Positions 12,457-33,176 of a stretch of 64,000 bases of DNA are shown here, piece by piece (the stretch's first letter is position 1; the number at the start of each line of letters is the position of its first letter). The stretch spans positions 345,808-409,807 of the forward strand of contig CABYLQ010000001.1 of the NCBI GenBank assembly GCA_902519845.1, read 5' to 3'. Source of the DNA: an uncultured Candidatus Actinomarina sp. (GTDB lineage: Bacteria > Actinomycetota > Acidimicrobiia > Actinomarinales > Actinomarinaceae). The translations under genes and the position numbers were made by a program. The notes under the pieces were generated by a model, which saw only the letters and a program-made list of their open reading frames with translations, was not told the origin of the DNA and searched no databases.

Positions 12457-12484
12457 TAGACAAGCTAATAAACGAAACTATTAT
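12457..12484 (+). promoter_or_regulatory. Candidate sigma70-type promoter (TAGACA-N16-TATTAT) placed so that transcription would begin at or next to the ATG of a leader ORF (leaderless)
   Basis: Read from sequence: tagaca (12457-12462), 16-nt spacer, tattat (12479-12484), then gaattc and ATG at 12491. Motif match only. Confidence 0.35.
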
Positions 12485-12490
12485 GAATTC

Positions 12491-12517
12491 ATGATTAATT
12501 TCATAATTATTATTTAA
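12491..12517 (+). CDS. Putative leader peptide MINFIIII (8 codons, 5 Ile) upstream of cimA
   Basis: atg att aat ttc ata att att att taa. The stop lies 1 nt before a perfect 9-bp hairpin. The downstream gene is the first enzyme of the citramalate route to isoleucine. Caveat: ATT runs are common in AT-rich DNA. Confidence 0.4.
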   Translation: MINFIIII

Positions 12518-12518
12518 G

Positions 12519-12566
12519 AACAACGAACTTTTCGTTGTTACCCTTGCGTTGCAGGGGTTTTTTTTT
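12519..12566 (+). terminator. Two tandem hairpins ending in a T9 tract: a perfect 9-bp stem (aacaacgaa/ttcgttgtt), then cccttgc-gtt-gcagggg plus TTTTTTTTT. Intrinsic terminator/attenuator ending 12 nt before the cimA ATG
   Basis: Complementarity read directly from the sequence. The GC-rich 7-bp stem (one G.U pair) plus U-run is a classical Rho-independent terminator. It may also terminate rdgB. Confidence 0.55.
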
Positions 12567-12578
12567 GGAAGAAGAAGA

Positions 12579-14141
12579 ATGAAGATAGACATATTTGATA
12601 CGACACTAAGAGATGGCTTTCAGCAAGAAGGCATATCACCGTCTGTAAAAGATAAATTAGCTATTGCAAAGCTAATTGATGAACTGGGTGTTGATTTTAT
12701 CGAAGGTGGTTGGCCTGGGGCATCGCCAAAAGAGAAAGAGTTTTTTGATACAGCAAAGAAAGATTTGAATTTAAACAATGCAAAATTAGTTAGTTTTGGA
12801 TCTACACGTAAATTAAATACCAAAGTTGAAGAAGATCCACAAGTTCAAGCATTAATTGATTCAGAAACTGAATATGTCTGTATTGTTGGAAAATCCTCAA
12901 ATCTGCACATCACTAAAGCTTTAGAGACGGATGTAGACAATGCTATCTCAATGGCAGTAGACACTGTGAGATTCTTGAAGGAAAATAATCGAAAAGTATT
13001 TTTTGATGCAGAACATTTTTTTGATGGTTTAAAAGAGAATGCAGAAGTGACTCTAAAAATCCTCGATTTAGTTGTCAAAGAAGGTGTTGAGTGTTTCATC
13101 TTTTGTGATACAAACGGAGGAACTCTTCCACATGAGGTTACGGAACTTTTAAATCCAATAATTGAGAAATATCCAAATCAAGAATTTGGTGTTCATTTTC
13201 AAAATGACAATGGCTGTGCAGTCACCAATTCTTTGGCAGCTGTAAATTTAGGTGTAAAGCACGTACAAGGAACAATGAACGGTTATGGGGAGAGAACAGG
13301 AAATGCAGATTTATGTACTTTGTTACCAAATCTATCTCTCAAGATGAATCTAGAAACAGTTCCTGAAAAGTCTCTTGAAAAATTAACTCCTATTGCTAAT
13401 CACATTGCAGAACTTGTAAATATTGCAATAGACTCAAGACATCCATATGTTGGGTCATCAGCATTTACTCATAAGGCAGGGTTGCATGCATCAGGTATGT
13501 CAAAAGATAATACATTATATGAACATATCAATGCAAGCCAAGTAGGAAACTATACAAGAACTACAGTTTCTGAGTTAGCTGGTAGAGCAAGTGTCATTAC
13601 AAAAGCAAAAGAATTTAATATTGAGTTTTCAAACGATGAAGCCAAAAATTTGATTGAACAAGTACAAAACTTAGAATATGAAGGTTTTCAATATGAGGCT
13701 GCTGATGCATCTTTATATTTATTGATGAAAAAAATTAAAGGTGAAGAACCAGAATTTTTTTCTTTTGAGAGTTTTCGAGTTTATTCCGAAAGAAGAAATT
13801 CACAGAATGTAGTCTCCGAAGCAGTTTGTAAGATTACTGTTGAAGAAAACAGATTTGTAACAACTGGTGAAGGAGTAGGACCTGTTGATGCACTGAATAA
13901 AGCATTGAAATCTGCCTTAAAAAATAACTATTCTGATGTAGATAAGATTAAATTAACTGATTATAAAGTAAGAATTATTGATTCATCAGATGGTACGGAA
14001 GCAAAAACAAGAGTACTAGTTGAGTTTACGGATGGTGAGATGATTTGGAGCACAATCGGTGTGCATGAAAATATTATCAACGCATCTTGGAATGCCTTGT
14101 GTGATGGTTTTAATTATTATTTTATGGAAAGTTCATCGTAA
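12579..14141 (+). CDS. cimA: (R)-citramalate synthase of the LeuA/HMGL family (CimA-type; 2-isopropylmalate synthase homologue)
   Basis: DTTLRDGFQ HMGL-like motif; IEGGWPGASPKEKEFF and SFGSTRK resemble Geobacter/Leptospira-type CimA; C-terminal LeuA-dimer regulatory domain (GEGVGPVDALNKAL). The preferred start is ATG 12579 after an RBS-like ggaagaaga. Confidence 0.75.
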   Translation: MKIDIFDTTLRDGFQQEGISPSVKDKLAIAKLIDELGVDFIEGGWPGASPKEKEFFDTAKKDLNLNNAKLVSFGSTRKLNTKVEEDPQVQALIDSETEYVCIVGKSSNLHITKALETDVDNAISMAVDTVRFLKENNRKVFFDAEHFFDGLKENAEVTLKILDLVVKEGVECFIFCDTNGGTLPHEVTELLNPIIEKYPNQEFGVHFQNDNGCAVTNSLAAVNLGVKHVQGTMNGYGERTGNADLCTLLPNLSLKMNLETVPEKSLEKLTPIANHIAELVNIAIDSRHPYVGSSAFTHKAGLHASGMSKDNTLYEHINASQVGNYTRTTVSELAGRASVITKAKEFNIEFSNDEAKNLIEQVQNLEYEGFQYEAADASLYLLMKKIKGEEPEFFSFESFRVYSERRNSQNVVSEAVCKITVEENRFVTTGEGVGPVDALNKALKSALKNNYSDVDKIKLTDYKVRIIDSSDGTEAKTRVLVEFTDGEMIWSTIGVHENIINASWNALCDGFNYYFMESSS

Positions 14142-14171
14142 AATTTTTATAATTACCTTAGGTAATTAAAA

Positions 14172-16118
14172 ATGTCAGAAAAAATTGAAAATCTACTTGG
14201 GGAAAATAGAACTTTTGATCCACCTTCAAGTATTGTTGAAAACGCAAACGCTACTAAAGAATGGTTTGATTTAGCTGAGCAAGACAGATTAGCCTATTGG
14301 CAAAAACAGGCCCTTGAGAGAATTACTTGGTATAAAGAGCCAACCGAAATTTTAGATGATTCCAATTCACCTTTTTATCAATGGTTTAAAGATGGAGAAT
14401 TAAATCTATCTTATAACTGTCTAGATCGTCACTTAGAAACAGATGGAGACAGAGTTGCATTTTACTGGGAGGGAGAACCTGGAGACACTCAAGAGATTAC
14501 CTATCAAGATCTTTATGAGAGAGTTTGTAAATTATCCAATGGCTTAAAAGAGTTAGGAGTCAAAAAAGGGGATAGAATAGCAATTTATCTAGGCATGACA
14601 CCAGAGATCGTAATTTCAATGTTGGCATGTGCAAGAATAGGAGCTGTTCATTCAGTTGTTTTTGGTGGTTTCTCTGCTGAAGCATTAGCTGATCGTATAA
14701 ATGATGCAGAAGCAAAGGTGGTTATTACCGCTGATGGTGCATGGAGAAGGGGAGATATTGTCCCTTTAAAAAAGAATGTAGATGATTCATTAAAACTAAC
14801 AGACCATATTGAAAGTGTTGTAGTTGTAAAAAGAACTAATAATGACGTAGATATGGTTGAGGGATTAGATTATTGGTATCACGATTTAGTAGATAAACAA
14901 GATTCAACATGTGAACCAGAGGTCATGAATGCAGAAGATATGCTTTACATACTTTATACATCTGGCACTACCGCAAAACCAAAGGGAATAGTTCATACAC
15001 AGGCCGGATACCTTACCGGAGTAACTACTACACATTCGGCAGTTTTTGATGTAAAAGAGGATGATATATACTGGTGTGCTGCTGATTGTGGGTGGGTAAC
15101 TGGTCATAGCTATATTGTCTATGGTCCTCTTGCCAATAAGACAACGAGCGTTATGTATGAGGGAGCACCAAACGCTCCAGATGAAAAAAGATTGTGGAGT
15201 ATTGTTGAAAAATATAAAGTAAATATTTTTTACACAGCTCCAACTGCAATAAGAGCATTTATGAAGTGGGGAGTAGAACATCCTCAAGCACATGATTTAT
15301 CTTCTCTAAGGTTATTAGGAACAGTTGGAGAGCCAATTAATCCAGAAGCTTGGATGTGGTACCACGAAAATATTGGAAGCGAATCTTGTGCGATTGTTGA
15401 TACATGGTGGCAAACTGAAACAGGATCAATCATGATCACTCCACTTCCAGGTATCACCAGTACAAAACCAGGATCTGCTTGTGGACCGATGCCAGGAATT
15501 GATGCAATTGTTGTAGACGAAAAAGGAAACGAAGTTTCAAAAGGAGAAGGTGGATACCTTGCAATAAAAACACCATGGCCTTCAATGTTGAGAACAGTTT
15601 TTGGAGATGAAAAAAGATATATCGATACCTACTGGTCAAAATATGATGGAATGTATTTTGCAGGAGATGGTGCAAAATATGATGATGACGGATATTTCTG
15701 GTTACTTGGAAGAGTGGATGATGTAATGAATATATCAGGTCATAGGATATCAACAGCTGAGGTTGAAAGCGCCCTTGTTGCACATGAGTCTGTTGCAGAA
15801 GCTGCAGTAATTGGAAGAGCAGATGAAATTTCTGGAGAGGCAATTGCAGCTTTCGTAACCTTGATTGGTGGCTTTGAAGGAAATGATGAACTGATCACGA
15901 CTCTACGACAACATGTAAGTGATAAGATAGGACCTATCGCAAAACCAAAAAGTATTGTGATAACAAATGACCTTCCAAAAACAAGAAGTGGAAAAATAAT
16001 GAGAAGACTACTTAAAGATATTTCAGAGGAAAGAAAACTTGGAGATGTTACAACACTTGCAAATGCAGATATCGTTTCAGAATTACAAACCAGATCATCA
16101 GAGTCAGCTGATGAATGA
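14172..16118 (+). CDS. acs: Acetyl-coenzyme A synthetase (AMP-forming)
   Basis: 648 aa. Acs N-terminus (NRTFDPP...EWFD...YWQKQA), AMP-binding motif [11 protein letters not shown], and the C-terminal acetylation-site region ...[11 protein letters not shown]. Confidence 0.92.
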
Positions 16119-31982: not shown

Positions 31983-33176
31983 ATGTTTGTTGACAATATT
32001 GAAATCGATCTTTTATCAGGTGCTGGTGGTTCTGGTTCTGTAAGTTTTAACTCTAAAAGTTCTCAAACTTCCCCTAATGGTGCAAATGGAGGAAACGGGG
32101 GTTCTATAACATTTAAAACTGATTCTAAACTTTTCGACTTTTCAAACTTAAAATCTAAAGGTTCATTTAAAGCTGATAATGGAGAAGATGCTCAAAAAAA
32201 TCTTCAAAATGGTAAAAATGGAGAAAATTTAGAGTTGAAAATACCCATAGGGACTTCAATATTTTATGAAGGTGAACTGATAGCAGAACTAATTGAAGAA
32301 AATGTAGAATATCTTATTTGCAAAGGAGGACAGGGAGGTAGAGGGAATAAGGATATGCTATCTAAACGAAATCCTAATCCAGAGATATGTGAGTCGGGTG
32401 AAAAAAGAAAAAAAATGAAAATTAATCTGCAATTAAGTTTGATTACTGACTTAGCTTTAGTTGGATTACCAAATGCAGGAAAAAGTTCATTGATCCAAAC
32501 AATTACAAACTCAAATTCAAAAATTGACAGCTACCCTTTTACAACAATAAGCCCAAGCTTGGGAGCCTATACAAACGATTATGGGATGGTAACAATATGC
32601 GATTTGCCAGGACTAATAAGCGGAGCAGCTGAAGGAACTGGACTTGGTAAATCTGTACTTAGACATCTCAAGAATACAAAATATATTATCTATCTACTCG
32701 ATCCGGACAACTCAGAATATGATGTAAACCAACAAATTGATTTACTTGAAAAAGAGGTTAAAAAATTTGATCCAAGATATAAAGATATACAGGTTCTAAA
32801 AGTTGTCAATAAATCAGACCTAAACAATAAAGTTCCAGACTTCATAAATATTTCAACCCTAACAAACGAGGGTATTGATGAACTTGTAAATGAGTTAAAT
32901 AGAGTTAATTTTCAGGAATTAAAAAGAGTAAATAAAAGTTTTGAAAAAATATTTTTTGAATCAGATAATTTTATTATTGATCAATATGAAGATAACTGGA
33001 TTGTATCAGGTAGAAAAGTAGATAAAATCACTAACCTAAAGGGCAATTCCCATGAAGTCTTAAACGAGATATCTTATAGATTTGAAAAATCATCAATTTC
33101 TGATGAGTTAAAAAATAGAGGAATTGAAAAGGGTGATATAGTAGATTTAAACGGACACGAGTTTTCATATGAGTAA
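31983..33176 (+). CDS. obg: GTPase Obg/CgtA
   Basis: Gly-rich Obg fold N-terminus; G-domain motifs (GLPNAGKSS; DLPGLI); C-terminal OCT-like domain. Confidence 0.9.
   Translation: MFVDNIEIDLLSGAGGSGSVSFNSKSSQTSPNGANGGNGGSITFKTDSKLFDFSNLKSKGSFKADNGEDAQKNLQNGKNGENLELKIPIGTSIFYEGELIAELIEENVEYLICKGGQGGRGNKDMLSKRNPNPEICESGEKRKKMKINLQLSLITDLALVGLPNAGKSSLIQTITNSNSKIDSYPFTTISPSLGAYTNDYGMVTICDLPGLISGAAEGTGLGKSVLRHLKNTKYIIYLLDPDNSEYDVNQQIDLLEKEVKKFDPRYKDIQVLKVVNKSDLNNKVPDFINISTLTNEGIDELVNELNRVNFQELKRVNKSFEKIFFESDNFIIDQYEDNWIVSGRKVDKITNLKGNSHEVLNEISYRFEKSSISDELKNRGIEKGDIVDLNGHEFSYE

Follow-up and report, generated by a model that had tools for sequence, protein, structure and literature searches.

How does Candidatus Actinomarina, one of the smallest free-living cells, with a streamlined genome, control its entry into isoleucine synthesis? 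The question is raised by a locus of an uncultured member of this lineage (GenBank assembly GCA_902519845.1, contig CABYLQ010000001.1, positions 345,808 to 409,807 of the forward strand). This stretch of 64,000 nucleotides (nt), hereafter the window, is the DNA analysed here, and positions are counted from its first letter unless another locus is named. Immediately upstream of cimA, the gene for citramalate synthase, lie a very short open reading frame (ORF) that ends in isoleucine codons, a hairpin, and a second hairpin followed by a run of T. CimA catalyzes the opening reaction of the citramalate route to isoleucine, and an initial annotation, made from the letters of the window alone, had read the arrangement as an isoleucine attenuator. 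Comparison with related genomes, in which the reading frame, the isoleucine identity of the codons and the RNA structure are kept while the nucleotides differ, supports that reading. The leader very probably acts as an isoleucine-responsive, ribosome-mediated leader-peptide transcription attenuator for cimA.

The cimA leader in the window

The elements of the leader, each with its strand, are the following.

12457..12462, + strand: -35-like hexamer TAGACA of the leader promoter; the form TAGACA-N16-TA(A/T)TAT is kept in Actinomarinales loci
12479..12484, + strand: -10-like hexamer TATTAT, 16 nt after TAGACA and 6 nt before the leader ATG
12491..12517, + strand: leader ORF MINFIIII with its TAA stop codon at 12515-12517 (atg att aat ttc ata att att att taa)
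12503..12514, + strand: run of four isoleucine codons (ata att att att), the proposed sensing codons
12519..12539, + strand: hairpin H1, a perfect stem of 9 base pairs (bp; 12519-12527/12531-12539) with loop CTT, starting 1 nt past the stop codon
12540..12558, + strand: terminator hairpin T, 8 bp including an A-U closing pair, loop GTT, zero spacer from H1
12558..12566, + strand: T9 tract of the intrinsic terminator
12567..12578, + strand: spacer of 12 nt holding the purine-rich ribosome-binding region ggaagaagaaga for cimA
12579..14141, + strand: cimA, citramalate synthase (TIGR00977 equivalog), the putative regulated gene

Re-examination of the sequence left the initial description of these parts largely intact. 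The promoter-like element TAGACA-N16-TATTAT upstream of the ATG at 12491 lies where it had been placed and is the top promoter-like match of the region, with agreement at 10/12 positions. The 8-codon ORF and its stop codon were correct to the base, as was the perfect 9-bp hairpin one nucleotide beyond. For the second hairpin, described as GC-rich with a 7-bp stem followed by T9, the coordinates were right and the stem was amended: the 7 bp (12541-12547/12551-12557) include one G-U pair, and A12540-U12558 extends the stem to 8 bp, with a predicted energy of -11.1 kcal/mol. The corresponding value for H1 is -7.6 kcal/mol. When the 97-nt leader region was compared with shuffled sequences, its fold had a z score of -4.19, and 0/200 shuffles folded equally well. 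In the minimum-free-energy fold of the window leader the U-tract pairs with the purine-rich ribosome-binding region of cimA, and the isoleucine tract is unpaired in the predicted folds.

Because only 6 nt separate the -10 hexamer from the leader ATG, the transcript is predicted to begin at or beside this codon, leaderless and without a Shine-Dalgarno sequence. A tiny ORF, ATG AAT TCA TGA (MNS*), at 12483-12494 overlaps the leader ATG as well as the -10 hexamer; being 5' of the predicted transcript start, it is probably unexpressed. At the other end of the leader, the cimA ATG at 12579 stands 12 nt past the T-tract, and this spacer is too short for a separate promoter, as had been argued. The assignment of the downstream gene was borne out by its product, which scored 621.5 bits against TIGR00977, for which the cut-off is 450.

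The window has a guanine-cytosine (GC) content of ~31%, and the genomes nearest to it are Candidatus Actinomarina single-cell genomes, which places it in the class Acidimicrobiia. Among its 754 ATG ORFs of 5-15 codons in six frames, MINFIIII is the sole one with four or more consecutive isoleucines. When all 64 kilobases (kb) were scanned for terminators under strict criteria (a perfect stem, at least three G-C pairs and a run of at least five T), the terminator of the leader was the only site. A looser scan gave 14 sites in 60 kb, versus ~22 expected from shuffles; the leader terminator ranked first among these and was alone in having a real U-tract. Apart from T, canonical intrinsic terminators are essentially absent from the 64-kb stretch, with loose-scan hits at or below shuffle expectation. 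A second promoter-like site, TAGACA-N16-TATATT at 32660, was set aside as a chance match because it lies inside a coding region.

Conservation and covariation across Acidimicrobiia

The initial annotation had proposed looking for an isoleucine-rich small ORF upstream of cimA homologues, and for covariation of the leader, in related genomes; both were found. The Actinomarinales set comprised 4 genomic loci (L001-L004) and 13 metagenomic loci (L081-L093), whose CimA proteins are 66-99% identical to the window protein over the full length. An isoleucine-run leader, H1 and T stand upstream of cimA in all 17 of these loci. Their leader peptides read MINFIIII, MMNIIIII, MKKIIIII, MKIIGIIIM and MQKIIIIV, and H1 is followed by a terminator of the form CCCTTGC..GCARGGG-T9. 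In several lineages ~770 nt with another ORF separate rdgB, the gene upstream of cimA in the window, from the leader, and the promoter and leader are still kept. In L001 and L003 this region (~2230-2920) holds a small hydrophobic ORF with the C-terminal end IIILFLVLSSIYIFVRQYRKKN, which several Actinomarinales lineages carry in this place and the window lacks. In leaders of the MKKIIIII type (2920-2996 in both L001 and L003, and others), the AAAAAAA of the two lysine codons is predicted to pair with the U9 tract. Such a long-range A7:U9 helix around H1 and T was rejected as a general feature, since it is confined to the MKK type and missing from the clade of the window and from the GC-rich leaders described below.

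Over all cimA loci examined, a run of at least three consecutive isoleucines in a short ORF no more than 250 nt 5' of cimA was present on the sense strand in 66 of 143 usable loci and on the antisense strand in 0/143. Most of the 66 come from genomes with 60-72% GC, and at such a composition a run of ATC and ATT codons is no composition effect. Overall, the leader ORFs are 7-14 codons long, with the proposed sensing at their last 2-5 sense codons. In the GC-rich genomes (60-72% GC), whose CimA is ~50-55% identical to that of the window, the ORF has 10-14 codons and ends in III, IIII or IIIII plus 0-2 further residues, as in MTARYDIIIIA and MTTNPTWTIIIIE, with IIIE and IIIID among the other endings; a strong hairpin starts at the stop codon, with the terminator after it. 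Across leaders the N-terminal residues and the ORF length vary, whereas the isoleucine run, the reading frame and the stop codon's position are kept. The run is written with ATA and ATT in Actinomarina and with ATC and ATT in the GC-rich genomes. The same residue is thus specified by different codons, which points to selection on codon identity and not on nucleotide sequence.

The promoter is likewise present in both groups, as TTGACN-N17-CATACT in the GC-rich genomes and TAGACA-N16-TAWTAT in Actinomarina. In 36 of the 45 leaders with a good -35 hexamer, the -10 hexamer lies 6-9 nt from the ATG, without a Shine-Dalgarno sequence, and the transcript is predicted to be leaderless or nearly so.

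Several further regularities were seen in the GC-rich leaders. The CATACT -10 and TTGAC -35 hexamers with their 17-nt spacer are almost invariant over very divergent Acidimicrobiia leaders (for example, L018 2050-2090), which exceeds the need of a generic promoter. In 44 unique GC-rich leaders the first isoleucine codon of the run is always ATC (L018 2099-2110, L012 2891-2902). ATT makes up 27% of the codons in the runs versus 7% of the isoleucine codons in cimA of the same loci, an odds ratio of 5 whose p-value is inflated by related sequences; typically a run holds one ATT, at position 2 or 3. The leader stop codon is TAG in ~83% of GC-rich leaders (L018 2111-2113, for instance) versus 24% of the long ORFs of the same loci, and it is TAA in the window. 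The G of the UAG stop is often the first paired base of H1, and the preference for TAG could reflect either a structural constraint or a preference for termination by RF1 only.

Alignment of all 60 leaders by plain MAFFT and RNAalifold recovered T and misaligned H1; this route was replaced by a hand-annotated seed and a covariance model. The model was built from 24 GC-rich leaders with the two-hairpin structure set by hand. It matched 89 of 100 sources and, in a further set, 17 of 61, always on the cimA strand and never on the antisense strand. The matches cover at least 105 loci plus the window, where the match spans 12503-12566 (23 bits, E ~0.01). In 84 distinct aligned leaders, 96% of the cells were paired, versus 75% in shuffles and 37-59% in controls with slid partners. 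Both-sided changes were found in 18 of 19 pairs (287 cells), comprising 10/10 modelled pairs of H1 and 8/9 of T, so that both hairpins covary. G-U pairs on the + strand place the structure of H1 at the RNA level.

The same module of promoter, leaderless ORF, H1 and T was also found upstream of other genes of branched-chain amino acid synthesis. It precedes leuB at L028 857-928, L044 750-823, L068 894-963, L057 935-1003 and other loci, where cimA lies 1-2 kb downstream of leuB and the LeuB products score 488-501 bits on NF002898. The leuB leader peptides end in VIIIE, VIIIS, VIIIC or AIIP. At L059 6502-6570 the module precedes ilvB, with the peptide MTNTPLTTVLLIT, ending in VLLI. The codon run thus matches the gene downstream: III to IIIII for cimA, VIII or AII for leuB, and VLLI for ilvB. 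Judged from these sequences, the module is a putative general attenuator for branched-chain amino acid genes in the class Acidimicrobiia. Neither leuB nor ilvB is present in the window.

Hairpin geometry and the proposed switch

Two spacings of the leader are nearly invariant. In 78 of 84 leaders the stop codon ends at -1 to +1 nt relative to the core base of H1. The linker between H1 and T measures 4 nt or less in 77 of 84, with a maximum of 7 nt. The distance from T to the cimA ATG, by comparison, varies between 13 and 58 nt. H1 loops are unconserved and mostly 4-8 nt long (3-8 nt in 71/84 leaders). The first isoleucine codon of the run stands 10-19 nt (median 14) 5' of H1. In the window, a ribosome with this codon in its A site would have its 3' edge (~+13) at ~12516, just before H1.

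No nucleotide is shared between H1 and T in any of the 84 leaders, and the switch can therefore not be one of competing base-pairing between them. This was pursued by constraint folding, with a ribosome placed at the first (Ile1), second (Ile2), third (Ile3) or last isoleucine codon or at the stop codon, both in full-length leaders and in transcripts ending before the 3' arm of T. H1 was predicted to stay folded while Ile1 or Ile2 occupied the A site, and to be melted once the last isoleucine codon or the stop codon did. In 12 full-length leaders, no overlapping antiterminator was detected; the probability of T was 0.89-1.00 at every ribosome position and ~0.97 in most. The 5' arm of T was also not sequestered in transcripts lacking the 3' arm: with the ribosome at Ile1 its median pairing was 0.13, and 0 of 59 leaders exceeded 0.5. 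With the ribosome at the stop codon, transient pairing of this arm reached a median of 0.36 and exceeded 0.5 in 8/59 leaders. The architecture thus keeps every part of a classical attenuator save the antiterminator.

A tentative answer to how such a leader could switch, the likeliest of those considered though less probable than not, is that H1 acts as a steric spacer, giving attenuation without competing base-pairing. When isoleucyl-tRNA is plentiful, the ribosome would reach the stop codon and unwind all of H1; with the hairpin melted, the ribosome and T would be ~20-35 nt of single-stranded RNA apart, so that T could fold and transcription would stop. When isoleucyl-tRNA is scarce, the ribosome would stall at the first isoleucine codons with its leading edge flush with folded H1. 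The folded hairpin would then serve as a collapsible spacer, placing the stalled ribosome within a few nucleotides of the base of T, and the last pairs of T would be blocked from closing in the RNA polymerase exit channel, with read-through into cimA as the outcome. H1 may double as a pause hairpin that holds the polymerase ~10-12 nt downstream, inside T, to await the ribosome.

That a ribosome close to an intrinsic terminator represses it has a precedent. With a stop codon 5 bp before the terminator tR2, termination efficiency was below 10%, and at 28 bp it was ~90% (Li et al. 2016, PMC4824070). The distances modelled here agree with this published dependence on the distance between stop codon and terminator.

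Several points weigh against the attenuator and its proposed switch. No documented case was found in which a hairpin that abuts the terminator without overlapping it acts as an antiterminator, and clusters of adjacent hairpins have been argued to promote termination (PMC8355165). The steric step would need only the first two or three isoleucine codons, although leaders often carry four or five in a row. The A-U-rich base that H1 has in Actinomarina could fray and give slack. The covariance model, trained on GC-rich members, matches the window only weakly (23 bits), and because the alignment was fitted to the structure by that model the pair counts favour the structure, albeit by a margin that is large. 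Finally, both the regulation by isoleucine and the steric step are deduced from sequence. With these points included, the best overall explanation, and a probable one, is an isoleucine-sensing attenuator for cimA, and possibly for acs downstream of it, that belongs to an undescribed Acidimicrobiia family acting on branched-chain genes.

Among the other accounts of the leader, the one that survives best keeps the isoleucine attenuator and reduces H1 to a pause site or insulator. The fate of T would then be decided by a factor not visible in the sequence, such as a protein, or a factor of the NusA/NusG type, recognising the stalled complex; alternatively, the 3' arm of H1, freed while the ribosome occupies later isoleucine codons, would compete kinetically. 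H1 lies ~10-12 nt 5' of the T loop, a suitable distance for a hairpin-stabilised pause, and a leaderless ORF would presumably need time for 70S loading. The transient pairing of the T 5' arm once H1 is melted also fits this account, which would explain the conserved later isoleucine codons. However, that pairing is weak, and its direction is wrong, since it arises in the isoleucine-replete state, when the stop codon has been reached. Neither the loop nor the stem of H1 is conserved in sequence, which argues against a sequence-specific protein site, and a pause alone leaves the H1-T linker of 4 nt or less unexplained. We regard this account as rather unlikely.

It is considerably harder to sustain a classical attenuator of the trp/ilv type, in which an antiterminator helix overlaps the terminator. 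The order of leader ORF, hairpin and terminator resembles that of classical attenuators, and the initial annotation had named a candidate antiterminator, the pairing of CAACG (12521-12525) with CGTTG (12547-12551). This 5-bp complementarity exists in the window but has a negligible predicted probability, and it is not conserved: CGTTG is missing from the T loop in seven related leaders (L001, L002, L003, L087, L089, L091 and L093). Together with the lack of any overlap between H1 and T (0/84), the stability of T at all ribosome positions and the free 5' arm of T at Ile1, this makes a classical switch highly improbable.

A translational mechanism, in which access to the cimA ribosome-binding site is controlled as in the mycobacterial polycysteine short ORFs, would draw on the pairing of the U-tract with the ribosome-binding region in the minimum-free-energy fold of the window. 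In mycobacteria, leaderless short ORFs with a codon run do act translationally (bioRxiv 10.1101/834739). In every leader, however, a GC-rich stem stands directly before the U-tract, the signature of intrinsic termination. The distance between T and cimA (13-58 nt) and its sequence are variable, and no pairing of the isoleucine tract with the ribosome-binding region is predicted. Translational control consequently has a very small probability.

The last account, that the hairpin and T9 are a plain rdgB terminator and the isoleucine-rich ORF an AT-rich by-product, could appeal to the position of the element in the rdgB-cimA spacer and to the abundance of isoleucine codons at ~31% GC, but a gene-end terminator is an unlikely reading given the scarcity of terminators in the window and the promoter placed between rdgB and this one, and the account is effectively refuted, with next to no probability left, by the comparative data: the module is kept behind a different upstream gene in other lineages and in 60-72% GC genomes, a four-isoleucine run occurs in 1/754 short ORFs, and the antisense count is 0/143.

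Related systems and neighbouring genes

The attenuator proposed for cimA was compared with known leaders. Like the enterobacterial attenuators (trp, his, leu, thr, ilvGMEDA and ilvBN), it begins with a short upstream ORF in which codons for the end product follow one another, places an intrinsic terminator between leader and gene, and has a hairpin near the leader stop codon that would read the position of the ribosome. Unlike them, it has no antiterminator sharing nucleotides with the terminator. Its ORF is very short (7-14 codons) and predicted to be leaderless, with the sensing codons last, and its H1, which starts at the stop codon, is separated from T by no more than 0-4 nt; it also matches no Rfam leader family.

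The closest known systems are the actinobacterial ilvB leaders (Seliverstov et al. 2005) and Corynebacterium ilvB-II (Narunsky et al. 2023). These come from the same phylum and combine an upstream ORF (uORF) rich in branched-chain codons with a first stem-loop and a second one that forms a terminator with a U-tract. Components of the classical attenuator were already noted to be often missing in Actinobacteria (Seliverstov et al. 2005, PMC1262725). The ilvB leaders and ilvB-II control ilvB and not cimA. In ilvB-II the uORF spans most of the first stem-loop, P1, and the proposed antiterminator joins the P1 loop to the 3' side of the lower part of P2 (PMC10272879). In contrast, the cimA uORF ends where H1 begins, H1 has short loops without conservation, and a pairing of this kind is not predicted.

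The mycobacterial polycysteine short ORFs (Canestrari et al. 2020) share with the cimA leader, here by prediction, a leaderless ORF whose 3' codon run senses charged tRNA and controls biosynthetic genes. Their action is translational: the cysteine tract pairs with the downstream Shine-Dalgarno region, and there is no terminator (bioRxiv 10.1101/834739). The cimA leader differs in its conserved canonical terminator and its unpaired isoleucine tract. The case in which a nearby ribosome represses a terminator (Li et al. 2016, PMC4824070) resembles the proposed steric step in that a ribosome near the base of the hairpin prevents closure and causes read-through. There, proximity is a matter of distance along the sequence and the ribosome covers terminator nucleotides; here it would be achieved through space, by the folding of a hairpin.

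When the window leader and GC-rich members were searched against Rfam, no family reached the gathering threshold, the Leu, Thr, His and Trp leaders and ilvB-OMG among them, and the sub-threshold matches were to small-RNA models containing terminators only. Searches of the literature for a leader peptide or attenuation at cimA, or for citramalate synthase, turned up no relevant description. Since no matching Rfam family or publication was found, the element appears to represent an undescribed attenuator family with an unusual, non-overlapping architecture.

The module recurs before cimA, leuB and ilvB over Acidimicrobiia with 31% to 72% GC. For an uncultured and abundant marine lineage, it offers a concrete, testable cis-regulatory element for amino-acid control and suggests that the citramalate route is a regulated entry to isoleucine synthesis in Actinomarina. 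If the steric spacer is true, it would represent a new physical logic for ribosome-mediated attenuation of cimA, leuB and ilvB in Acidimicrobiia. With its two almost invariant spacings, the architecture makes the old observation that actinobacterial leaders lack attenuator components directly testable. The covariance model can be used to annotate such leaders in metagenomes.

The neighbours of cimA in the window are rph, rdgB and acs, the last of which follows cimA closely.

14172..16118, + strand: acs (acetate-CoA ligase), 30 nt 3' of cimA

The two genes 5' of rph were read, from ORF order and translations and with no family search, as probable acnA and pdxH. The adjacency of cimA and acs was found in 12/12 Actinomarinales loci with enough downstream sequence, and not in the GC-rich relatives. 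Acetyl-CoA is the co-substrate of CimA, which makes co-regulation of cimA and acs possible; acs may be co-transcribed with cimA and hence come under the same leader. The spacer between the two genes (14142-14171) contains the palindrome AATTACC-TTA-GGTAATT and a TATAAT-like hexamer.

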